This document shows, piece by piece, positions 7,540-51,394 of a stretch of 53,966 nt of DNA (within the stretch, counting starts at the first letter, position 1; the number at the start of each line of letters is the position of its first letter). A model generated the notes under the pieces. That model saw only the letters and a program-made list of their open reading frames with translations, did no database searches and was not told the origin of the DNA. Source of the DNA: Nanobdellota archaeon (lineage in GTDB: Archaea; Nanobdellota; Nanobdellia; CSSed11-243R1); assembly GCA_021163365.1 (NCBI GenBank), contig JAGGWW010000012.1, positions 1-53,966 of the forward strand. Reading direction: 5' to 3'. A program made the position numbers and the translations under genes.

Positions 7540-8478
7540 ATTAAAGGATTACACATTTTAGAAATTCAAGAACTTCCAAAAGAATTCTTTCTTGAGTTAT
7601 TTGAATTAGCTAGGGACATAGAAAAAAATCCAGAAAAGTATTCGCACACTTTAGAAGGAAAAGTTGTTGCAACACTTTTCTTCGAGCCAAGCACAAGAAC
7701 AAAAGATAGTTTCATTTCTGCTGTTGAAAAATCAGGAGGAAAGATTATAGGGTTTGACTCTGTCCAAGGTTCAAGTGTTAAAAAAGGAGAAAGCTTAGCT
7801 GACACAATTAGAATGTATGCTGGCTATTCTGATTTAATAGTAATAAGGCATAGCAAAGATGGCGCAGCAAGGCTTGCATCTGAATATTCCATAAAGCCAA
7901 ATACTGGAGAAATAGTGCCTGTAATAAACGGTGGTGATGGACAAAATCAACATCCCACTCAAACAATGCTCGATTTATACACAATAGAAAAAGAATTAGG
8001 AAAACTTAAAGGTTTGCACATTGCTTTGGTTGGAGATTTAAAATATGGAAGAACAACGCATTCCCTTCTTTTTGGCGCAGCAATGTTTGGAATGGAGATA
8101 AGCTTAGTTGCCCCACAACAAATCCAGATGCCAGAAAAGCACTTAGTAAAAGTAAAAGAACTTTATGATGTAAATCCAAAGTTTCACAATTCCATTGAGG
8201 ATATTATTTCTGATGTTGATGTTTTATATATGACAAGAATACAAAAGGAAAGATTTCCAGATATAAATGAATATAGAAAAGTAGCTAATGCGTTTGTACT
8301 TAATTCGAAGCTAATGGAATTAGCAAAGGAAAAAATGATAGTAATGCATCCATTACCAAGAACAAATGAGATAAAACCAGAAGTAGATAAAGATAAAAGA
8401 GCGGCATATTTCAAACAGGCTGAAAATGGTGTTCCTATAAGAAGAGCTTTAATGTATAAGGTTTTGGAAGTGGTATAA
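7540..8478 (+). CDS. pyrB: aspartate carbamoyltransferase catalytic chain; start codon non-canonical (ATT proposed)
   Basis: The frame is open from 7525. The 96 codons upstream of the first ATG (7813) encode clear ATCase sequence (FFEPSTRTKDSF, SSVKKGESLADTIR), and HPLPR lies downstream. No ATG/GTG/TTG occurs between the TGA at 7522 and 7813. Confidence 0.75.
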   Translation: MKGLHILEIQELPKEFFLELFELARDIEKNPEKYSHTLEGKVVATLFFEPSTRTKDSFISAVEKSGGKIIGFDSVQGSSVKKGESLADTIRMYAGYSDLIVIRHSKDGAARLASEYSIKPNTGEIVPVINGGDGQNQHPTQTMLDLYTIEKELGKLKGLHIALVGDLKYGRTTHSLLFGAAMFGMEISLVAPQQIQMPEKHLVKVKELYDVNPKFHNSIEDIISDVDVLYMTRIQKERFPDINEYRKVANAFVLNSKLMELAKEKMIVMHPLPRTNEIKPEVDKDKRAAYFKQAENGVPIRRALMYKVLEVV

Positions 8479-20364: not shown

Positions 20365-20650
20365 GAAGTTTTCTAAAGCGGGCGGGCGCGCCAGCTCTCG
20401 AGAAACCGCACCAGTGGCAGTCCCCAGACCTTTTCTCCACCCCGTATCCTAAGAGCACACGCTATTCTGCTTAGGGCTGCTCCATCCCTGGCCTGACCCG
20501 GTTCACAGAATAACGCATCCCTTAGGGCGAGGCTTCTTAGATACGGCCTGGGCTTACCAAAAATGCGGTAACCCTCAAGCTGGCTTCGGCCCCCCATAAG
20601 GACGGTTTGGGGTTAACAGGCCACGCCCAGCGGCCCACCTAGCCCGCCCA
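20365..20650 (-). ncRNA. signal recognition particle RNA (archaeal 7S/SRP RNA)
   Basis: GC-rich island in an AT-rich genome. The minus strand starts GGGCGGGCUAGGUGGGCCG and ends GCGCGCCCGCCCGCUUU, so the termini pair. Alu-domain motifs CCUGUUAACC and GGGGGGCCGAAGCC are present, as is the helix 8 motif GGGUCAGGCCAGGGAUGGAGCAGCC. About 285 nt. Confidence 0.85.
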
Positions 20651-20678: not shown

Positions 20679-20744
20679 GGTTTCATAAAAGAACTATTTC
20701 AAAACTTCCTTTTGTAAGCAGTATAGAAAAAGCCCCGGGTGGGA

Positions 20745-20794
20745 CTTTCACAACCCTTTCTTTCCCAAGGCTTTCTTCGGGAAGAAAGGGTTGG
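20745..20794 (-). other. T-loop 59/60 intron of tRNA-Thr (50 nt)
   Basis: BHB drawn by eye: T stem GUGGG/CCCAC, 4-bp helix UUCA/UGAA, bulges AA|C and AG|U, and inner helix CAACCCUUUCUU../..AAGAAAGGGUUG. Confidence 0.75.
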
Positions 20795-20816
20795 TTTGAA
20801 CCCACGACCTTCGCCT

Positions 20817-20832
20817 CCTTGGATTTAAAGTT
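20817..20832 (-). other. canonical 37/38 intron of tRNA-Thr (16 nt)
   Basis: BHB drawn by eye: anticodon stem UCGCC/GGCGA, 4-bp helix UUGG/CCAA, and 3-nt bulges UA|A and GG|A. Confidence 0.75.
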
Positions 20833-20852
20833 TACCAAGGCGACGCTCTACC

Positions 20853-20901
20853 GATTTCTCCAACCTTTCTTTGGTTGAGCTTTCTTTCCCAAAGAAAGGT
20901 C
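20853..20901 (-). other. D-loop insertion/intron of tRNA-Thr (49 nt; boundary ambiguous by 1 nt)
   Basis: Removal restores the canonical D arm GCUC-AGCUGGUA-GAGC. The insert contains a perfect 12-bp hairpin ACCUUUCUUUGG/CCAAAGAAAGGU. I could not draw a clean BHB. Confidence 0.55.
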
Positions 20902-20940
20902 AGCTGAGCCACCGGGGCTTAAGAAGTCCAATAACCTTTT

Positions 20941-35332: not shown

Positions 35333-35371
35333 TTATAAATATTACCACTAACGAGAAATAAAAAATTTAGA

Positions 35372-35503
35372 TAGCCCCGCGCGGACTTCCGAGCACCCAC
35401 GGATTTTCTTTCCGTGCACGCTTTCTTTTTTAAGAAAGGGTGCGTTCGAACCGCGGTCACAGGGTCCAAAGCCCTGTATGCTTGGCCACTACACCACGGG
35501 GCT
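35372..35503 (-). tRNA. tRNA-Gln (anticodon UUG) with a 59-nt intron at T-loop position 59/60
   Basis: The minus strand reads AGCCCCG UG GUGU AGUGGCCAA GCAU A CAGGG CUUUGGA CCCUG UGAC CGCGG UUCGAA[59 nt]U CCGCG CGGGGCU A. An oligo-U tract follows the 3' end. Confidence 0.85.
35386..35444 (-). other. T-loop 59/60 intron of tRNA-Gln (59 nt)
   Basis: BHB drawn by eye: T stem CGCGG/CCGCG, 4-bp helix UUCG/CGGA, bulges AA|C and AG|U, and inner helix GCACCC/GGGUGC with one extra U. Two internal hairpins: CUUUCUU-AAAAA-AGAAAG and CACGGA-AAGAAAA-UCCGUG. Confidence 0.75.
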
Positions 35504-36704
35504 ATCTCTTTGGAGGCTTACCTCTTCCTCGTATTGCTCCGCCTCTTTTTACTGCATAATAATTTTTCCCTTCTCTTTTTTTGTACTTCTTTTGAAGTTG
35601 GGTTAAAAGCCTGTTAAATGCATCCTGCAATGTAAACATTAAATTATAACCATACCATGGCTCTTTACTTGTTACTACTTCTCCTCTGCCAGCTGACTTA
35701 AGCAAATGAACTTTAATTTCGTAATTCCATTTCTCTGGTGTTGCACCATGTATTTTCTTTATATGTATGTTTATGCTTTCTAAATCTGGGCATATTTGCT
35801 TCATCTTTCTTATGTCTGATTTTAAGTAATCCTTTATTAATTCTATTGTTTCAATTTTTAATGGAAATCCTGAGAAGTGCAACCAAACACCCTCTTTAAA
35901 CTTTCTTTCAGCAAGCTTATCTAAAACTTTCCATCTTTCAAATAAACCAACAACCTTCTTCTCATCATCAACAACTGGAACACCCTTCATGTTTCTATCC
36001 AAAAGAGATTTAAGAACATTAGAAACACTGTCTTTTGGTTTAACTTCTGGCAAATCTCTTATAATCAAAGACTTAACTGGCATTGAAAATGGATTAATCG
36101 CCTTTCCTGCCCTGTCTTTTCTTCCAAGCTTTTCTTTTGGTTTTTTGTAAAATGTTCTTAAAATGTCTAAAGAAGTTATAGCACCTAAAAGTTTTCCTTC
36201 TTCATCAACAACTGGAAGCATGTTCCATCTATTGTGCCTCATCCATCTTCTTGCTTCTGATACACTTTCATCTTCTGTAAGAACCTTTATCTCCTCTTCC
36301 ATAACATCTCTTACTTTGAGCCCTTTTATTCTTCTATCATTTAACAGGCTTTTTAATATATCATAATCAGAAATTAAACCAACAAGTTTTTCCCCATCTA
36401 AAACAGGTATTGCTTCAACACCTGTTTTTACCATAAGCGTTATTACATCTCCAATAGGTGTATCTGGAGAAACAATGGGTGGCTTAATCATTAAAGTTGA
36501 CACTTTTTCTTCTGGGTCAGCCCTTACAAAGTCAAGAATATCGTAGTACGTAACCATGCCAACAAAAATTCCATTTTCAACAATTGGCACTTCTTTTATT
36601 CCATATCTTTCCATCTTTGAAACTACTTTTTTTATTTGTTCATCTGGAGAAGCAGTCTTTACATTTTTAGTCATGATATCTTTAGCTGTTTTCAAATTCA
36701 TCAC
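35502..36704 (-). CDS. four-CBS-domain protein with C-terminal HPF/RaiA (S30AE)-like domain
   Basis: Four consecutive CBS repeats (each ending ..G(I/L)(V/I/F)(T/S)..D(I/V)L). The last roughly 120 aa (LHFSGFPLKIETIELIKDYLKSDIRKMKQ...INIHIKKIHG...YEIKVHL...FTLQDAFNRLLTQLQKKYKK) follow the beta-alpha-beta-beta-beta-alpha sequence pattern of hibernation promoting factor. Confidence 0.7.
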   Translation of the reverse strand: MMNLKTAKDIMTKNVKTASPDEQIKKVVSKMERYGIKEVPIVENGIFVGMVTYYDILDFVRADPEEKVSTLMIKPPIVSPDTPIGDVITLMVKTGVEAIPVLDGEKLVGLISDYDILKSLLNDRRIKGLKVRDVMEEEIKVLTEDESVSEARRWMRHNRWNMLPVVDEEGKLLGAITSLDILRTFYKKPKEKLGRKDRAGKAINPFSMPVKSLIIRDLPEVKPKDSVSNVLKSLLDRNMKGVPVVDDEKKVVGLFERWKVLDKLAERKFKEGVWLHFSGFPLKIETIELIKDYLKSDIRKMKQICPDLESINIHIKKIHGATPEKWNYEIKVHLLKSAGRGEVVTSKEPWYGYNLMFTLQDAFNRLLTQLQKKYKKREGKNYYAVKRGGAIRGRGKPPKR

Positions 36705-36728: not shown

Positions 36729-38261
36729 TTATAAAGCTTTTGACATATAATAACCTGTTTTTCTATATCCAAACTTCCTGTAATATTCGCGAACACCAAT
36801 TCCAGATATAATGTAAAGTCTTTTGTAGCCATTTTCTTTTGCAATTTTCTCAGCTTCCTTCAAAAGCTTTCTGCCATATCCCCTGTGCTGCCATTTGCCT
36901 TTTTCCCCAATTAACACTTGCTCGCCATATACATGTAGCTCTCTAACTATTGCCATCTTTGAAAGTCGCAATCTTAAAAATCCAATTAAAACATCGTTTT
37001 TATCTTTAAATTGCAAAAAGAACTCTTTACCTCCACTTGCATCATATACTATTGTATGAAGCTTTATTGAACTAACATCTACTTTTCCACCATTTTTTAA
37101 AACATGCCCAACTTCTCTACACCTTATGCACTTACATTTAATTTTCTTCCTCTTAAGCTCTTGTTGTAAAATTTGTCTTAAATTAGTTGCTTTAATTCCA
37201 GCTTGAATTTCTGTACCAGGAATATCTCTTTCTATTCTCATAATCCTTACCCACTCTGGTATATTCTTCTTTAGCTCTATGATAACATCTTTAGCATAAT
37301 CTTCATCAATGGGTTTGTATTTACCTTTTTTCCAATCATTGTAAAGCTTTGAACCTTTTATCACAAGTGTTGGGTATATCTTAAGCATATCAGGTCTAAA
37401 ATCTGGATTTTCAAATATTTCCTTTAAAGCTTTAATATCCCTTTCTTTTGTTGTTCCTGGAAGCCCAAGCATCATGTGATACAAAACCTTAAACCCCCTA
37501 TCTTTTAGTATCTTTGTTGATTCAATTACATCCTTTACAGTATGTCCACGATTAACCTTTTTGTAAACATCGTCATAAATTGTTTGAACCCCAAGCTCAA
37601 CTCTTGTTCCACCAAGCTTAAGCATAAAATCAGCATGCTTTTCCTTTCCATAATCTGGCCTTGTTTCAAAAGTCATTCCAACACAACGTATGTTCGCCTT
37701 TTCATTTGCTTTTTGAACCTTTTCCAAAGAATAACTCTTTTTTGGCTTATCCTTTGGAAACAAGTTCATTGCAAGTAAACAATCTTTTACAAAATTTTCT
37801 TGATATTTCTTTGGCATTGCTGGAAAAGTTCCACCCATTATAATAAGTTCAACTTTTTGTGGAATATGTCCTGTTAAAAATAGCTGATTTAATCTATTTT
37901 GAACTTGTTTGTATGGGTCAAATTTGTTTGCAATTGCTCTTCTAGCTGCAGGTTCTTTTCCAGTATAAGATTCTGGAACATTGTTAACATGCGGGCAATA
38001 AGAACACTTTCCATGAGGACATGGCCAAGGTTTTGCCATAACAGCTATTACAGCAACTCCAGAAATTGTTCTTGTTGGCTTTATTTGTAAAAGCTTTCTA
38101 ACTTTTTCTTTGTCATTTGCAACAGCTAAGATTTCTGCATTTTGTGGGAATTTATCAAGCTTATATTTAATTGCAAGTTCCTTTTTACGCCTAGCTAAAT
38201 CTCTTTTTGTTTTTATCTTTCCTGATTCTATTTCTTTTACTATTTGTTGTAAAACATCCAT
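36729..38261 (-). CDS. elp3: Elp3-type radical SAM/GNAT tRNA U34 modification enzyme
   Basis: Radical SAM cluster region CPHGKCSYCP, a TIM-like core and a C-terminal GNAT (QHRGYGRKLLKEAE). 510 aa. Confidence 0.9.
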   Translation of the reverse strand: MDVLQQIVKEIESGKIKTKRDLARRKKELAIKYKLDKFPQNAEILAVANDKEKVRKLLQIKPTRTISGVAVIAVMAKPWPCPHGKCSYCPHVNNVPESYTGKEPAARRAIANKFDPYKQVQNRLNQLFLTGHIPQKVELIIMGGTFPAMPKKYQENFVKDCLLAMNLFPKDKPKKSYSLEKVQKANEKANIRCVGMTFETRPDYGKEKHADFMLKLGGTRVELGVQTIYDDVYKKVNRGHTVKDVIESTKILKDRGFKVLYHMMLGLPGTTKERDIKALKEIFENPDFRPDMLKIYPTLVIKGSKLYNDWKKGKYKPIDEDYAKDVIIELKKNIPEWVRIMRIERDIPGTEIQAGIKATNLRQILQQELKRKKIKCKCIRCREVGHVLKNGGKVDVSSIKLHTIVYDASGGKEFFLQFKDKNDVLIGFLRLRLSKMAIVRELHVYGEQVLIGEKGKWQHRGYGRKLLKEAEKIAKENGYKRLYIISGIGVREYYRKFGYRKTGYYMSKAL

Positions 38262-39704: not shown

Positions 39705-39913
39705 AGGTAAAGCACCATCCCTTATCTTAATACCAAGAGGAAACAACAATCACTAACTCTTTTGTAAAATTCTGACATCTTATTAAATAAAAAGAAGCCG
39801 CAAAGAGCAATAAAATCTTGCTGAGAAACGCTGTCATCCAACAAAGAAGCAACTGTGAAAGAGTATTGAGAAAACTTTTCTGGTTCTGATTTAAATCTCA
39901 TTGCTTCACCATT

Positions 39914-39950
39914 TCAAAAAAAAATAAAAAAGCAGCGCCTAAACGGCGCC
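39914..39950 (-). terminator. hairpin plus oligo-U terminator downstream of the TrmB-family gene
   Basis: Minus strand GGCGCC-GUUUA-GGCGCU followed by UUUUUUAUUUUUUUUU. Confidence 0.45.
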
Positions 39951-39991
39951 AAAACAAGAGCCGGGGGATGAGACGGCTGCACATGAGAGCA

Positions 39992-40795
39992 TTATTTCTT
40001 TGGTGCGCTCTCCCAGATGCGGTCGAACATTGTTGTTAATGCTGTTGCAATTGGTTGAGAGTTTAACCAAATTCCAACATCGTAGTTTGGATGCAAGTCT
40101 TTGTCATCTAACACCATTAAAACAGCATGCTTTCCATCAACAACTGCAAACCTTGCGTTTAAGTTCTTAACATGCCTCACATCTGCAATTGACTTAAGCT
40201 TTTTAAGAGCTTCAGAATTCTTTTCTGTGAATGGAGCTGCAATCTTTATTGTAACACCTTTTTTCTTTGCATGCTCCAATGCATTCTTAAATGCCTCATA
40301 TTTTCTTATCAACCCATCTCCAGAAGTAACCAAAACAACACTTTGCTTTGCATTCTTTATCAATGATTCTAAATGTGAATAAATATTGTTCCTTCCTTTT
40401 AAAGCACCTGAAAGCTCGCTTGGCTCAATAAAGTTAATTCCTTTTTTGTAAAGATTATCCAATGTTTTAATTAAATCTGTTGATTTAACTTTGTCTAAGT
40501 CCTTAACTTTCCTTTCAGCATGCTCCTTTACATTTTTCTTTGCGCGCTCAACCACATCTTTTGGGGAGACAGCAATATATTGAATTGGTTTTCCTAATTT
40601 CATTACAACAAATCCTTTTCTTTCTAATGATTCTAAAACATCATATGTTCTTGACCTTGGGACTCCAGCCATGTTGCTAAGTTCTCCTGCAGTAGAAATA
40701 CCTCTTGAAAGCAAAGCCACCCATATTTTTACTTCATAGAGATTTAAGTCAAAAATTCTTCTAAGCTTTGCAAGCATTTCATCCTTTAAAACCAT
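39992..40795 (-). CDS. TrmB-family transcriptional regulator
   Basis: N-terminal wHTH (LYEVKIWVALLSRGISTAGELSNMAGVPRSRTYDVLESLERKGFV) plus a C-terminal effector-like domain. 267 aa. Confidence 0.75.
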   Translation of the reverse strand: MVLKDEMLAKLRRIFDLNLYEVKIWVALLSRGISTAGELSNMAGVPRSRTYDVLESLERKGFVVMKLGKPIQYIAVSPKDVVERAKKNVKEHAERKVKDLDKVKSTDLIKTLDNLYKKGINFIEPSELSGALKGRNNIYSHLESLIKNAKQSVVLVTSGDGLIRKYEAFKNALEHAKKKGVTIKIAAPFTEKNSEALKKLKSIADVRHVKNLNARFAVVDGKHAVLMVLDDKDLHPNYDVGIWLNSQPIATALTTMFDRIWESAPKK

Positions 40796-44620: not shown

Positions 44621-44815
44621 TTTACCTTTCCTTTTTCCGTAAACGCTTTTGAGCGTGCGGAAAAGGGTTTGATGCTTCAGCGAGCGCATTCGAGGCAGCA
44701 CCTTCCTCTTCCCCCAAGGAAGGGCTGCCTTATCATGCTCTCATCCTAGAGAGCACCCCTTTGCCCTATGACCCGGCTGCAGACTACTTCTAACTGAAAA
44801 GCCGGGTAGGGCAAA
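44621..44815. ncRNA. GC-rich multi-hairpin element between convergent genes (candidate structured RNA; strand and function unknown)
   Basis: At least four stable hairpins in a row: CCUUUUUCCG..ACGCU-UUUG-AGCGU..CGGAAAAGG; GGCAGC-A-CCUUCC-loop-GGAAGG-GCUGCC; UGCUCUC-AUCCUA-GAGAGCA; UGCCCUA-UGA-CCCGGCU-loop-AGCCGGG-UAGGGCA. GC content is clearly above the flanks. Confidence 0.35.
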
Positions 44816-45904
44816 TCAATTAAAACCCTTAGCATGATTTACAATATTTTCAAGTTGCGCTTTTGAATTAACTTGGTTAATTACGTAAACCCTTGGAAAC
44901 CTTCTCATTGGGTCTATTGAAGGATGATGCCAAATTTCTTTAATCTCATGAGGGGCATCCTTTATTAATTTTATAAAGTCTTCATCATAAACAACTTCCA
45001 TTATTTTAACATTAGTATCTGGAATTAATCTTAAGTCGACATTTCCAATCTCATAATTCCAATAACAATTTCCATCATCTTCAAGAACAATGCCTGTTCT
45101 TTTTGCACCAAAATCTTTTAACCATTTAGAAATTTTTCCCATCTGATATTTAACATCTGAAGTATAATTTTCACAATCCTTTACGCAATTAAATGTGAAC
45201 TTTCTTCCTAATTGATTTTTAACAATATCTGAAAGGATATCATTCTTTAAAAGCTCAACATCAATTTCAAAAAGTTTTTTTCCTTCTATGTATCTCATTT
45301 GAAGCTCTTTTACAACTAAATCAGGGGTTATATTATATGGTATAAAAATCTCATCACCAATTAAAGGCTTGCAACGATTAATTCTATCTTCAAGCCCAAG
45401 TTCATATGCAACAACATTTGCAGCAATATGTGTGCAAACAACAGCATAAACCCTGCTTTCATCAGAAATCCTTGAATAAACAGCTTCCTCACATCCGCAA
45501 ACAACATCATACAAACTGCTTACTTCTCCATGTTTTTGCATTAACCCTTTTATTGCAGTTAAATGAACAGTTGGATTTCTATAGCCAGTGCTTCCTTTTC
45601 TTCCACCATGACTTCTTGATTTAACAATAGCATTAGAAACAGTTCCACCATCTGATATTTTTAAAACACCTTGTCTTTTAATTAAATTTAAACTTCCTTT
45701 AACTCTTTTAACACCATTTTCAAGCTCTGAAAAAGAATAATTAGAATGTTCTCTCCAAACTTGTTTCAACTCCTTTTCTGGCCAAACCATTGCATATGCT
45801 TCTGCAAATCTTGATGGAGGAAAAACAATAGTTCTATGTTGTGTATTATAAGCAATGCCATAGCCCCTTGGTATTAAACCAAAGTTAACTGTGTTCTTTG
45901 GCAT
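44816..45904 (-). CDS. hypothetical protein with SWIM-type zinc finger
   Basis: 362 aa. VVCGCEEAVYSRISDESRVYAVVCTHIAANV fits CxCx(n)CxH, with the CxHI(A) context typical of SWIM. Confidence 0.5.
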   Translation of the reverse strand: MPKNTVNFGLIPRGYGIAYNTQHRTIVFPPSRFAEAYAMVWPEKELKQVWREHSNYSFSELENGVKRVKGSLNLIKRQGVLKISDGGTVSNAIVKSRSHGGRKGSTGYRNPTVHLTAIKGLMQKHGEVSSLYDVVCGCEEAVYSRISDESRVYAVVCTHIAANVVAYELGLEDRINRCKPLIGDEIFIPYNITPDLVVKELQMRYIEGKKLFEIDVELLKNDILSDIVKNQLGRKFTFNCVKDCENYTSDVKYQMGKISKWLKDFGAKRTGIVLEDDGNCYWNYEIGNVDLRLIPDTNVKIMEVVYDEDFIKLIKDAPHEIKEIWHHPSIDPMRRFPRVYVINQVNSKAQLENIVNHAKGFN

Positions 45905-46462: not shown

Positions 46463-46657
46463 ATGAATTACAAGTTAATAATACAACCTGGAAGTCAACC
46501 AAGTGGTGCATATAAGATAAAGCTAGATGCATATATGCCTCTCCGCGCAACAATAGGCGATGTTCCAAACAATATTCCACCAAACACATATGGAAAGATG
46601 ATTGGTGGAATATATAGACAACTAAATAATTTATTAGATATTGGTAAGAAAAAGTAA
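46463..46657 (+). CDS. hypothetical small protein
   Basis: 64 aa counted from the ATG at 46463, which is preceded by AGAGGTGA at ideal spacing. The track ORF begins at an upstream TTG. Confidence 0.4.
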   Translation: MNYKLIIQPGSQPSGAYKIKLDAYMPLRATIGDVPNNIPPNTYGKMIGGIYRQLNNLLDIGKKK

Positions 46658-46688
46658 ATTAATAAACTGCTTCTTCTTTTATTTTTGT

Positions 46689-47954
46689 ATGGCTAAGCCA
46701 GGAGATTTAGTTGAGATTGTAACAAAAAACAAAAAGTATGTTGGTATCTTGATGCCAAAACCAGAAATAATTAAGAGCAATACAATTGTCATTAAGCTTG
46801 ATTCTGGATACAACATTGGTATTGAAAAAAAGAAGATTAAAAAAATTAAAGTAATTAAAAAAGCAAAAAAGGGAAAGAAAAAGAACATAAAAATAAAACA
46901 AAGTAAAAAGCTTCCAACTGTTTCAATTCTTTCAACTGGTGGAACAATTTCTTCAAAAGTGGATTATAAAACAGGAGGAACCTATGCATCTTTAACAGCA
47001 GAAGATTTCATTCAGCTTGAACCAAAGATTTTAAAATTCGCAAACATAAGAGCAAAGCAAATAGAACAAATCATGAGTGAAGACATGACTCCAGAGCATT
47101 GGATTAAAATAGCAAAAGAAGTTTATAAAGAGTTAAACAAAAAAGAGGTTTCTGGTGTTGTAATAACACATGGTACAGATACAATGCATTACACAGCTGC
47201 TATGCTTTCTTTTATGTTCCCAAAACTTTCAAAGCCAATTGTGCTGGTTGGTGCTCAACGCTCAACAGATAGAGGTAGCAGTGACACTTTTATGAACTTG
47301 ATTTGTTCTGTTATTGCTGCAACACAAAAGATTGGAGAGGTTATGGTTTGCATGCATGCAACAACAAATGATGACTTCTGCTATCTCCATCGTGGAACAA
47401 AAGTTAGAAAAATGCACACAAGCAGGAGAGATGCTTTTAGATCCATAAACCAAATGCCAATTGCAAAAATATGGCCAGATGGAAGAATCAAATTTTTAAT
47501 TAATTACAAAAAACCAGATAAAACCAATGAATTAAACATAAAAATAAACAAAAAAGTAGCTCTCATCTATGTTTATCCTGGAATAAATCAAAATATTATT
47601 GATTATTATTTGAACAAAGGATATAAAGGGATAGTCATAGCAGGAACTGGCTTAGGACATGTTCCAACATATTTAATTCAAAAAATTAAAAAAGCAGTTA
47701 AAAAAGGAGTTGCTGTTTGCATAACATCCCAGTGCTTTTATGGAAGAACACATTCATTTGTATATTCTAATTTAAGAAGGTTATCGCAAACTGGAGCAAT
47801 ATTTTGTGAGGACATGCTTCCAGAAGTAGCTTATGTTAAACTTATGCATGTTTTAGGAAAAACAAAAAAATTGGAAAAAATAAAAGAATTAATGCAAAAG
47901 AACATTGCTGGAGAAATTAATCCAATTATTTCAAAAGATATGTTTTTGGTGTGA
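46689..47954 (+). CDS. gatD: Glu-tRNA(Gln) amidotransferase subunit D
   Basis: N-terminal MAKPGDLVEIVT beta-domain and an asparaginase-like core (LSTGGTISSK, ITHGTDTM). Start taken at 46689 rather than the track's 46641. Confidence 0.9.
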   Translation: MAKPGDLVEIVTKNKKYVGILMPKPEIIKSNTIVIKLDSGYNIGIEKKKIKKIKVIKKAKKGKKKNIKIKQSKKLPTVSILSTGGTISSKVDYKTGGTYASLTAEDFIQLEPKILKFANIRAKQIEQIMSEDMTPEHWIKIAKEVYKELNKKEVSGVVITHGTDTMHYTAAMLSFMFPKLSKPIVLVGAQRSTDRGSSDTFMNLICSVIAATQKIGEVMVCMHATTNDDFCYLHRGTKVRKMHTSRRDAFRSINQMPIAKIWPDGRIKFLINYKKPDKTNELNIKINKKVALIYVYPGINQNIIDYYLNKGYKGIVIAGTGLGHVPTYLIQKIKKAVKKGVAVCITSQCFYGRTHSFVYSNLRRLSQTGAIFCEDMLPEVAYVKLMHVLGKTKKLEKIKELMQKNIAGEINPIISKDMFLV

Positions 47955-49819
47955 ATATGGATTACAAAAAAATAGGGTTAAAATGCGGATTAGAAATTCA
48001 TCAACAGCTTGATACGCACAAGCTTTTTTGTAAATGTCCTTCTGTTTTAAGAGACGATACTCCACATTTTGAAGTTAAAAGAAAGCTAAAAGCAGTTGCA
48101 GGAGAAATGGGAAAAATAGACATTGCTGCAATTTCTGAGCAAGCAAGGGAAAAAATATTCGTATACGAAGGTTACAATGACACAACGTGCTTAGTTGAAT
48201 TAGATGAAGAGCCACCACATAAATTAAACCAAGAAGCATTAGAAATTGGTTTACAAATTGCACTTCTCCTTAACATGAAGCCATTTGATGAAATACAAAT
48301 TATGAGAAAAACAGTTATTGATGGTTCAAACACTTCTGGATTTCAAAGAACAGCATTAATTGCTGAAGATGGATATATAGAAACAAAAGATGGAAAGGTA
48401 CGTGTTAACATGCTTGCTTTAGAAGAGGATTCTGCAAGAAAAATAAAGGAAGCATATGGTGAAGTACGTTTTAGATTAGATAGATTAGGCATCCCTCTTG
48501 TTGAGCTAAGAACAGAACCAGATATATTTACACCAGAACAAGCAAAGGAAGCAGCAGAAAAAATTGGTTTGTTGATGAGAATGACTGGAAAAGTAAAAAG
48601 AGGGATTGGAACAATAAGACAAGATATAAATGTATCTATAAAAGGTGGGGAAAGAGTTGAAATAAAAGGAGTTCAAGAATTAAATGACATTCCAAAGATA
48701 ATTAAACTTGAAATAGAAAGGCAACAAAGCTTGATAGAGATAAGTAAAAAGCTAAAGCAAAGAAAAGCAAAGCTTGAAAAAAAATTCTTTAGTATTAAAA
48801 AAATTTTAGAGAAATCAGAATCTAACTTAGTAAAAAAAGCAATTGAAAATGAAGAAGAAATAATCGCTGTAAAGCTTTCTGGATTTGCAGGTTTATTGAA
48901 GAAAAAAATTCAAGCTGAAAGATATCTTGCTAAAGATTTAGTTGAATATGTCAAGCATTTTACAGGAATTAAAGGATTTATTCATTCTGACGAGCTTCCA
49001 AATTATGGAATCTCTGAAAACGAAGTTTTTCAAATTAAGAAGTTTTTAAATTGTAAAAACGAAGATGCATTTGCTTTTGTTTTTGCTGAAAAAGAATTAG
49101 CAGAAAAAGCACTTTCATATTTAATTGATAGATGCCAACAGTATGTAAAAGGTGTTCCAAAAGATGTTAGGGATGTAAATGATGATTGCACAACAAGATT
49201 CTTAAGGCCAATGCCTGGAGCTGCAAGAATGTATCCAGAAACTGATGAAATTCCTGTGCCAATTACAAAGGAATTGTTAAAGAAGATAAAAATACCAGAA
49301 AAGCCTGAAGAAAGACTTGCGAAGTTCAAAAAATGGGGGCTTTCAAATGATTTAGCTAATCAAATTTTGCACAGCCAAGATTTAATTACATTTGAAGAGC
49401 TTGTTAAAAGGTTTAAGAAAATCTCTCCAACAATCATTGCATCAACTCTTTTATCAACAAGAGACGAGATAAGAAAAAGATATGGTATTGAAACATCTCC
49501 AATTAAAAAGAGACATTTTGAAGAAACCTTTGAGCTGTTAGATAAAGGAAAAATAGCAAAAGAAGCAATTGTTGAGATTTTAGCTCACTTAGCTGCAAAA
49601 CCACAAATGACTGCTGAAGAAGTTGTTAAAAAATTAAAACTTCAAAAGATTTCTATAAAAGAGTTAAGAAAGATAATTAATAAAATCATTGATGAAAACG
49701 AAGAGCTTGCAAAAAACAAACAATTCAAAGTCCTCATGGGATTTGTTATGCGCAAAGTGCGTGGAAGAATTGATGGCGAAATTGTTGCAAAAGAGCTGAA
49801 AAAGGCGCTAGAGAAATGA
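47951..49819 (+). CDS. gatE: Glu-tRNA(Gln) amidotransferase subunit E
   Basis: GLKCGLEIHQQL N-terminus, the GatB/E core, an AspRS-like insertion and a C-terminal YqeY-like tail. 622 aa. Start is GTG at 47951 or ATG at 47957. Confidence 0.9.
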   Translation: MNMDYKKIGLKCGLEIHQQLDTHKLFCKCPSVLRDDTPHFEVKRKLKAVAGEMGKIDIAAISEQAREKIFVYEGYNDTTCLVELDEEPPHKLNQEALEIGLQIALLLNMKPFDEIQIMRKTVIDGSNTSGFQRTALIAEDGYIETKDGKVRVNMLALEEDSARKIKEAYGEVRFRLDRLGIPLVELRTEPDIFTPEQAKEAAEKIGLLMRMTGKVKRGIGTIRQDINVSIKGGERVEIKGVQELNDIPKIIKLEIERQQSLIEISKKLKQRKAKLEKKFFSIKKILEKSESNLVKKAIENEEEIIAVKLSGFAGLLKKKIQAERYLAKDLVEYVKHFTGIKGFIHSDELPNYGISENEVFQIKKFLNCKNEDAFAFVFAEKELAEKALSYLIDRCQQYVKGVPKDVRDVNDDCTTRFLRPMPGAARMYPETDEIPVPITKELLKKIKIPEKPEERLAKFKKWGLSNDLANQILHSQDLITFEELVKRFKKISPTIIASTLLSTRDEIRKRYGIETSPIKKRHFEETFELLDKGKIAKEAIVEILAHLAAKPQMTAEEVVKKLKLQKISIKELRKIINKIIDENEELAKNKQFKVLMGFVMRKVRGRIDGEIVAKELKKALEK

Positions 49820-50643: not shown

Positions 50644-51015
50644 ATGAAAAAAGAAGTTAATTATGTTTTAAACAAATTAAAAAAGATACCAGAAGTTCAG
50701 GCAGTAATTCTTTTTGGCTCTTATGCAAAAAAAGAACAAAAACCATATTCTGATATAGATATAGCAGTGGTTTTAAATCCAATAAATGAAGAGGTAGAGG
50801 ATGAGATATTTTCTCTATCTTCAAACTCGTTGGATGTCGTCCCATTTAACAAGGTTCCACTTTATATTCAATTTGAAATTTTGAAACATGGAAAAATTTT
50901 ATTTATGAAAAACAAAAGATTTTTTACGGATTTGGTTTATAAAATAATTAGCAACTATCTTGAACAAACAAGAATGTACAAAATCATTGGTGAGCAGATT
51001 GGAGCTAAGATTTAA
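50644..51015 (+). CDS. minimal nucleotidyltransferase (MNT-type antitoxin)
   Basis: ILFGSYAKKEQKPYSDIDIAVV (GSx10-12DxD) in a 123-aa protein. Confidence 0.75.
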   Translation: MKKEVNYVLNKLKKIPEVQAVILFGSYAKKEQKPYSDIDIAVVLNPINEEVEDEIFSLSSNSLDVVPFNKVPLYIQFEILKHGKILFMKNKRFFTDLVYKIISNYLEQTRMYKIIGEQIGAKI

Positions 51016-51394
51016 AACAATTGCTTTAAGAATATTAAAGCACATAAAAACTTCTAGAGAGTTAGTTAGAGAAAACTTAGATGATAAAAAAATTTTCGAC
51101 GCTCTTTCAATGAATTGCTTTCAAACTGTCAATTCTTTAATTGATTTAGCAGAGCTCATAGTTTCAAAGAAATTACTTGGGTTTCCTGCTAACTATTCAG
51201 AACTTTTTGAACTTTTGCATAAAGGAAAAATAATAACAAAAGATGAATTGAAAGCATTTAAAAAGCTAATAAAATATAGAAATTTAATCGCACATGAGTA
51301 TTACCAAATAACTAAAAAAGAAATATATAACATGGTTTCACTTTTCACACATATTGAAAGATTATTAAAAAAGGCCTCCAAGTTGATAAAATGA
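50960..51394 (+). CDS. HEPN/DUF86 (HepT-type toxin) protein
   Basis: YRNLIAHEY carries the Rx4H HEPN motif. The start is uncertain: in-frame TTG/GTG at 50987/50990 would shorten the overlap with the MNT gene. Confidence 0.7.
   Translation: MNKQECTKSLVSRLELRFKTIALRILKHIKTSRELVRENLDDKKIFDALSMNCFQTVNSLIDLAELIVSKKLLGFPANYSELFELLHKGKIITKDELKAFKKLIKYRNLIAHEYYQITKKEIYNMVSLFTHIERLLKKASKLIK

Follow-up and report, generated by a model that had tools for sequence, protein, structure and literature searches.

A predicted T-loop intron with a relaxed splicing motif in the tRNA-Gln(UUG) gene of a Nanobdellota archaeon, and related introns in tRNA-Thr(GGU)

Introduction

The tRNA-Gln(UUG) gene on contig JAGGWW010000012.1 of a Nanobdellota archaeon (assembly GCA_021163365.1) is broken within its T-loop by an insert of 59 nt, and the question raised by this locus is whether the insert is an intron that is removed to give a working tRNA, the mark of a gene in decay, the trace of an integrating element or of faulty assembly, or an intron that is also kept for a purpose of its own. 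The contig stretch analysed here, 53,966 nucleotides in all, is referred to as the window. An earlier note, made from the sequence of the window without database searches, had read the insert as an intron at 59/60 with a splicing motif of canonical geometry built on the T stem. From the comparisons below we conclude, with a probability of roughly 0.88, that the insert is a 59/60 intron spliced via a relaxed BHB and that it belongs to a family of related structured introns.

Results

The tRNA-Gln(UUG) gene is complete once the insert is removed

The gene lies on the minus strand (Table 1) and runs, in its 5' segments, AGCCCCG UG GUGU AGUGGCCAA GCAU A CAGGG CUUUGGA CCCUG UGAC, followed by CGCGG UUCGAA (59 nt) U CCGCG CGGGGCU A; the anticodon UUG is at 35469..35467, the variable loop has 4 nt and CCA is not encoded. 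When the 59 nt were removed in silico, giving the predicted spliced junction ...GGUUCGAA joined to UCCGCG..., ARAGORN called the resulting 73-mer as tRNA-Gln(ttg) with a regular cloverleaf, in which the anticodon loop CUUUGGA is uninterrupted and the T-loop UUCGAAU has its normal 7 nt. Together with the related gene of the genome L001 described below, this call bears out the coordinates, the isotype and the single 59-nt intron at 59/60 given in the earlier note, as well as its observation that the anticodon loop is intact.

Standard finders did not see the gene. ARAGORN, which permits introns in the anticodon loop only, returned no tRNA in the whole window and none in the unspliced tRNA-Gln gene, and the archaeal SRP RNA (20380-20649) was the sole match to Rfam in the window at the gathering threshold. 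With the cut-off relaxed to E <= 10, the match to the Rfam tRNA model was partial: it covered the 5' two-thirds of the locus and scored 22.9 bits, short of the gathering threshold of 29. The surrounding segment, 35362-35546, is among just five GC-rich islands in a window whose G+C content is 31.6%. In the 12 confident ORFs of the window the codons CAA and CAG stand at 129:13, so that the anticodon UUG corresponds to about 91% of the Gln codons; this tRNA would therefore be heavily used, and its anticodon matters.

The CBS-domain ORF upstream (35502-36704) ends in a TAG stop that overlaps the first two bases of the tRNA. Nothing like a TATA box was seen near -25. The tRNA may be co-transcribed with the CBS-domain mRNA, then needing 5' processing. 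N. equitans is not known to have an RNase P, which makes a possible need for 5' processing of this tRNA notable. The leader AGAU can pair with A73 and the trailer UCU, which makes the acceptor stem 4 bp longer, and the oligo-T run downstream is, from its sequence, a likely archaeal transcription terminator.

Table 1. Positions of the two interrupted tRNA genes, their parts and the amidotransferase genes in the window.
Feature	Position	Strand	Details
Pre-tRNA-Gln(UUG) gene	35503..35372	minus	132 nt; A1 = 35503, discriminator A73 = 35372
Exon 1, nt 1-59	35503..35445	minus	acceptor 5' strand, D arm, anticodon arm, T stem 5' strand, T-loop U54-A59; from 59-nt removal and ARAGORN call
T-loop U54 U55 C56 G57	35450..35447	minus	5' strand of the 4-bp central BHB helix
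Intron at 59/60	35444..35386	minus	59 nt, between A59 and U60
Intron hairpin 1	35438..35421	minus	intron nt 7-24, CUUUCUU/AAGAAAG, followed by linker CGUG; from fold and covariation
Intron hairpin 2	35416..35398	minus	intron nt 29-47, CACGGA/UCCGUG; from fold and covariation
Intron CGGA	35391..35388	minus	intron nt 54-57, 3' strand of the central helix; 4/4 pairs
Exon 2, nt 60-73	35385..35372	minus	U60, T stem 3' strand CCGCG, acceptor CGGGGCU, A73
Oligo-T run	35360..35365	minus	7 nt downstream of tRNA-Gln; from sequence
Pre-tRNA-Thr(GGU) gene	20918..20731	minus	188 nt, three introns; spliced 73-mer = tRNA-Thr(ggt)
tRNA-Thr intron, assigned to 15/16	20903..20855	minus	49 nt; site less certain than 59/60
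tRNA-Thr intron at 37/38	20832..20817	minus	16 nt
tRNA-Thr intron at 59/60	20794..20745	minus	50 nt
gatD	46641-47954	plus	NCBIfam equivalog, E = 2.6e-172
gatE	47951-49819	plus	NCBIfam equivalog, E = 4.1e-241

The T arm and the insert form a relaxed BHB

In the folded precursor the T-loop nucleotides U54 to G57 pair with the 3' end of the insert (U54-A, U55-G, C56-G and G57-C), and this 4-bp helix of exon and intron is stacked beside the T stem CGCGG/CCGCG. The 3' splice site lies next to that exon helix in a bulge of 3 nt, the canonical size, made of the intron dinucleotide AG (35387..35386) and U60. The T stem and loop imitate the anticodon stem and loop, as the earlier note had proposed, with 49-53 corresponding to 27-31, 54-57 to 32-35, 58-59 to 36-37 and 60 to 38.

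On the 5' side A58, A59 and the intron nucleotide C1 are unpaired, and the outer helix GCACC/GGUGC then joins intron nt 2-6 with nt 48-52. One extra nucleotide, intron U53 (window 35392), lies between the outer and central helices, opposite the A58-A59-C bulge. RNAfold pairs U53 with A58, which produces a 5-bp helix and a 2-nt bulge; otherwise the site is a 3x1 internal loop, and in the syntenic intron of the genome L007 the counterpart of U53 is an A that is unable to pair. Because U53 separates the outer helix from the central one, the motif is a relaxed BHB and not a strict 3-4-3 one, departing from the strict hBHBh' form by one extra nucleotide at the 5' site. The claim of canonical geometry was thus right for the 3' half of the motif and wrong for the 5' site. 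The fold of the whole precursor has a minimum free energy (MFE) of -58.2 kcal/mol with z = -3.66 (RNAfold), and the insert itself folds as a three-way junction of the outer helix and two hairpins.

Other placings of the splice sites and of the central helix were considered and ruled out. Splice registers at 58/59 and 60/61 alter the T-loop relative to the L001 orthologue and violate the rule of 4 bp plus 2 nt, and for a central helix of U55-A58 with UCGG the pairing is not conserved, L007 having an A in place of the window's U.

Relatives fix the junction and conserve the pairing

The Elp3 gene of the window (36729-38261, minus strand) is 79-83% identical to those of two metagenome-assembled genomes, L001 (labelled 'Nanobdellati archaeon') and L007 (labelled 'Nanoarchaeota archaeon AUK188'), and both carry a syntenic tRNA-Gln(UUG) gene, which lies downstream of the genes for Elp3 and for a CBS-domain protein. 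These orthologues were located by short-word BLAST; an exact search of the first loci for the anticodon-arm pattern gave no match, and the anticodon stem of the relatives differs. In L001 (13668..13773) the T arm and acceptor are contiguous and 100% identical to nt 46-73 of the spliced window sequence, and this uninterrupted T arm fixes the junction at A59|U60. The L001 gene has a single intron, of 33 nt, in the D-loop at about 21/22, and the T-loop intron is absent. The L007 gene (5627..5868) has inserts of 49 nt at 15/16, 54 nt at 37/38 and 66 nt at 59/60, without which it measures 73 nt. Close relatives thus differ in the introns of the same tRNA, the window gene having the 59/60 intron only, L007 three introns and L001 the D-loop intron only.

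A metagenome scan with the pattern CGCGGTTCGAA-N(40-70)-TCCGCGCGGGGCT returned 16 loci, and 14 of these are tRNA-Gln(UUG or CUG) genes with inserts of 41-66 nt at 59/60, on contigs of low to moderate GC content; many of the genes have further inserts in the D-loop, in the anticodon loop or between acceptor and D arm. In two of them, L016 and L021, an extra short insert follows the acceptor 5' strand (AGCCCCGT[GG/AG]AAG..hairpin..GCGGA-), near positions 8-10, in addition to the insert at 59/60. One scan locus with 73% GC (L013) was a chance match and was set aside. Two further contigs, from JGI metagenomes (L024 and L025), carry a pre-tRNA-Gln sequence identical to that of the window, which is thereby found in three independent assemblies.

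The 3' halves of tRNA genes are common targets of integration, and an insert at this place could in principle have been left by an integrating element, as its scar or attachment site, or have arisen as an artefact of assembly, and not be a spliced intron at all. The scan supplied a locus of that general kind: L008 (minus strand, approximately 1671-1763) has an intact tRNA-Gln-like gene and, 69 nt further on, a direct repeat of its 3' end (TCGAATCCGCGCGGGGCT), which resembles an attachment-site duplication or an integration remnant. The window insert, by contrast, has no direct repeats of exon sequence at its borders, is too short at 59 nt to encode anything and is structured like BHB introns, and an assembly artefact is excluded because the identical precursor is present in the two other metagenome assemblies. 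We regard this explanation as the least probable of those considered.

The pairing between T-loop and intron was tested at 16 inserts, namely 13 non-redundant metagenome loci (L023 being a duplicate of L022), the Gln and Thr genes of the window and L007. The intron nucleotides that end 2 nt upstream of the 3' splice site formed 62 of 64 possible pairs with T-loop positions 54-57, whereas registers slid by 1-3 nt formed 16-39. This agrees with the pairing of UUCG (54-57) with intron CGGA given in the earlier note.

Structure was tested further on an alignment of four homologous 59/60 introns, those of the window, of L007 at the syntenic locus, of L014 and of L019, where the host gene is a tRNA-Gln(CUG). 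Only four related sequences enter this alignment, and its mean column identity is 86%, flanks included. The tested structure comprised the T stem, the central helix, the outer helix and the two hairpins, and 98.3% of its cells were paired, against 35-60% in slid controls. Seven pairs in the intron hairpins showed double compensatory changes, a number equalled in 0 of 500 shuffles, and on the intron side of the central helix three of the four pairs vary (CGGA, CGAG, UGAA) while the invariant UUCG is always paired, so that the pairing is kept in homologues despite sequence change. Within the limits of these four sequences, the covariation supports both the BHB and the three-way junction, the latter as the earlier note had drawn it.

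The same observations bear on whether the gene is a decaying pseudogene, in which the insertion disrupted the T-loop and a functional tRNA is no longer made. Such a gene might well be rejected by standard finders in its unspliced form (ARAGORN, Rfam), lack an obvious promoter and have an imperfect 5' half of the BHB, and all three apply here. Decay is hard to reconcile with exons identical to those of intact relatives, with the exact 4-bp pairing and 2-nt spacing kept in four diverged genomes with compensatory changes, with the same arrangement in 14 metagenome contigs and with an anticodon that serves so large a share of the Gln codons of the window, and we consider it very improbable. A spliced intron remains the preferred reading.

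A second interrupted gene, tRNA-Thr(GGU), was overlooked

The window contains a further tRNA gene that the earlier note had missed, a tRNA-Thr(GGU) with three introns (Table 1). It adjoins the SRP RNA gene, forms a GC-rich island (20731-20918) and was undetected by ARAGORN and by Rfam at the gathering threshold. A TATA-like sequence, TTTAAATA, lies about 23-30 nt upstream. Its 59/60 intron has a strict hBHBh' (3-4-3) motif, with the central helix UUCA/UGAA, the bulges AA|C and AG|U and a directly adjacent outer helix of 12 bp; the same motif appears on the T arm in the MFE fold. The D-loop intron is placed with less certainty, since exhaustive ARAGORN runs accepted any splice boundary there; the assignment to 15/16 comes from BHB geometry and the parallel with L007.

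Introns at different sites resemble one another

Introns at different sites were compared by semi-global alignment against shuffles, and their scores lay overall at z = 5-14 above the shuffled controls. The 59/60 intron of the window tRNA-Gln scored z = 11.1 with the 15/16 intron and z = 8.0 with the 37/38 intron of the L007 tRNA-Gln, and z = 6.9 with the 59/60 intron of the window tRNA-Thr, which in turn scored z = 7.0 with the 15/16 intron of the same gene. None of 300 shuffles reached these scores; the shuffles were mononucleotide ones and the introns are purine/pyrimidine-rich, so that low-complexity bias is controlled only in part. Two of the three tRNA-Thr introns fall in the same sequence family as the Gln intron. 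The plan that the introns share begins with one bulged nucleotide, a GC clamp and a CUUUCUU...AAGAAAG hairpin, continues with a C(G)UGCAC- or CUCAACC-type segment and a purine-rich stretch, and ends with the 3' strand of the clamp, the four exon-pairing nucleotides and AG or AA. A regular expression for the hairpin, of low sensitivity in that it missed the Gln and tRNA-Thr 59/60 copies, matched only the tRNA-Thr D-loop intron and coding sequences in the window.

By sequence likeness, then, related structured introns appear to occupy 15/16, 37/38 and 59/60 of tRNA-Gln and tRNA-Thr. The presence of related introns at three sites in two tRNAs points to introns that spread through duplication or transposition and were later lost in individual lineages.

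Other elements of the window

Both subunits of GatDE, the amidotransferase that forms Gln-tRNA(Gln) from Glu-tRNA(Gln), are encoded in the window (Table 1). The earlier note had tied the tRNA to these genes; their presence is confirmed, and the connection is one of generic archaeal biology with nothing specific to the locus. An Elp3 homologue, a tRNase Z-like protein and a class I LysRS are encoded as well.

At 44625-44825 (minus strand), between ftsZ and an unannotated ORF, there is a GC-rich element about 190 nt long with strong structure (MFE -89.7 kcal/mol, z = -5.76) that is 79-81% identical to the syntenic L001 3433-3597, with two compensatory pairs, and that has no Rfam match even at E <= 10; it is a candidate unclassified non-coding RNA. 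A small GC-rich island with two short hairpins at 39923-39992, just downstream of a TrmB-family ORF (39992-40795, minus strand), could be a terminator or a small RNA. The single match to a query with 39900-40030 was weak (L001 7140-7188, 76% over 50 nt) and lies at the ORF-proximal end, off the island. The ORF for the aspartate carbamoyltransferase catalytic chain at 7813-8478 is short (221 aa), and its match to the N-terminal, carbamoyl-phosphate-binding domain is confined to the last third of that domain; the start of the ORF may be miscalled or the gene split or truncated. The adjoining ORFs at 50644-51394, for an MNT-like nucleotidyltransferase and a HepT/HEPN ribonuclease, look like a toxin-antitoxin module.

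Discussion

Gene structure, junction, pairing and conservation, as read from the window and its relatives, are the ground for the pathway that we propose, in which the splicing itself, its enzymes and the order of steps would be as follows. In the precursor the T stem (49-53/61-65) would stack on the 4-bp helix of U54-G57 with intron nt 54-57, leaving the 3' splice site within the 3-nt bulge (A, G | U60) and the 5' splice site (A59 | C) in the bulge that faces the extra U, beyond which a GC helix of 5-6 bp would close the three-way junction. A broad-specificity EndA, encoded outside the window, would cut both sites, and an RtcB-type ligase would join the exons and restore the T-loop UUCGAAU; among the window ORFs scanned with Pfam neither EndA nor RtcB was found. 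Because U54-G57 would be sequestered in the precursor, the elbow of T-loop and D-loop would presumably form only after splicing, and T-loop modification, CCA addition, glutamylation and amidation by GatDE would come after that. The tRNA-Gln intron predicts a splicing endonuclease of broad specificity in this lineage.

An intron that is spliced could still be kept for a function of its own and not be purely selfish or neutral, for instance as a stable circular RNA, as a checkpoint that delays T-loop modification and the elbow, or as a shield of the tRNA 3' half against integrases. Compensatory changes maintain both intron hairpins, and introns of one architecture sit at three positions in two tRNAs, as such a function would lead one to expect. 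Yet L001 does without an intron at 59/60 while its exon is unchanged, neither a C/D-box nor another recognisable guide motif is present in the intron, Rfam gives no match to it, and the conservation of structure may reflect only the needs of the endonuclease or recent common descent. We think a function of this sort unlikely, and take the insert to be first of all a spliced intron.

How the introns came to lie at several sites invites a wider proposal, which from the present comparisons has about an even chance of being right: that vent-type Nanoarchaeota harbour a proliferating family of structured introns, marked by the GC clamp, the CUUUCUU/AAGAAAG hairpin and a second hairpin, which has inserted repeatedly at 15/16, 37/38 and 59/60 in several tRNAs and is rapidly gained and lost between close relatives. 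If true, this would extend Thermoproteales-style 'intron transposition' to DPANN and could explain part of the DPANN 'missing tRNA' problem. Surveys of DPANN and of Nanobdellota have reported incomplete tRNA sets and unexplained missing tRNAs (PMC5829648; bioRxiv 10.64898/2026.05.13.725050). As ARAGORN and Rfam at the gathering threshold miss both tRNAs of the window, inventories will wrongly report tRNAs as missing unless intron-aware tools are used; tRNAscan-SE 2.0 includes a search for introns of this kind in its default run, using models whose training sets came from Crenarchaeota/Euryarchaeota and Thaumarchaeota (PMC8450103). Related introns at three positions in two tRNAs, variable between relatives, are in any case a compact data set on the spread of archaeal tRNA introns. 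In the literature consulted we came upon no account of a comparable intron family in Nanoarchaeota, and the modestly new element here is the family common to positions and tRNAs in Nanoarchaeota-like genomes.

The 59/60 position as such is not new, contrary to the rarity implied in the earlier note. T-loop introns at 59/60 are a documented archaeal class, to which this tRNA-Gln gene adds one more example; the site appears in a list of archaeal non-canonical intron positions, for which Crenarchaeota and Nanoarchaeota are singled out as rich sources (PMC4090602). The nearest precedent is ARMAN-2 (Ca. Micrarchaeum), in which the 59/60 intron of pre-tRNA-Cys(GCA) has a relaxed motif and was cleaved in vitro by the archaeon's own epsilon2 endonuclease, and whose pre-tRNA-Pro(GGG) has strict introns at 53/54 and 59/60 (Fujishima et al. 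2011, PMC3239211). [quoted passage not shown] ARMAN-2 is likewise a DPANN archaeon with an intron at T-loop 59/60 and, in tRNA-Cys, a relaxed motif; it differs in the tRNAs concerned (Gln and Thr here) and in lineage, which is here Nanoarchaeota-like, with 31.6% GC and vent-type. The relaxation in the window consists of one extra nucleotide opposite the 5' bulge, as against a missing helix in ARMAN-2, and the tRNA-Gln intron, unlike that of ARMAN-2, is a conserved three-way junction.

tRNA genes with several introns, and the transposition of introns, are known from the Thermoproteales (Sugahara 2008 and Fujishima 2010, as cited in PMC4090602 and PMC4033280). The likeness lies in tRNA genes with as many as three introns, at canonical and non-canonical sites, 59/60 among them, in similar introns across tRNAs and positions and in relatives that vary in intron content; the difference is that the Thermoproteales are Crenarchaeota (TACK) whose (alpha-beta)2 enzymes carry the crenarchaeal loop. 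Nanoarchaeum equitans belongs to a related phylum, has disrupted tRNA genes and has an endonuclease that accepts a relaxed BHB, but its tRNA halves are trans-spliced from separate loci and its endonuclease is heteromeric (PMC4090602, PMC4033280), whereas the intron of the window lies in cis. With the canonical archaeal BHB at 37/38 the tRNA-Gln motif shares a 5-bp stem, four loop nucleotides paired with the 3' end of the intron, cleavage behind the sixth nucleotide of the loop and a 3' bulge of two intron nucleotides and one of exon. It departs from that canonical form in the extra nucleotide opposing its 5' bulge and in being built not on the anticodon arm but on the T arm, where the motif would sequester U54-G57 and block the elbow until splicing.
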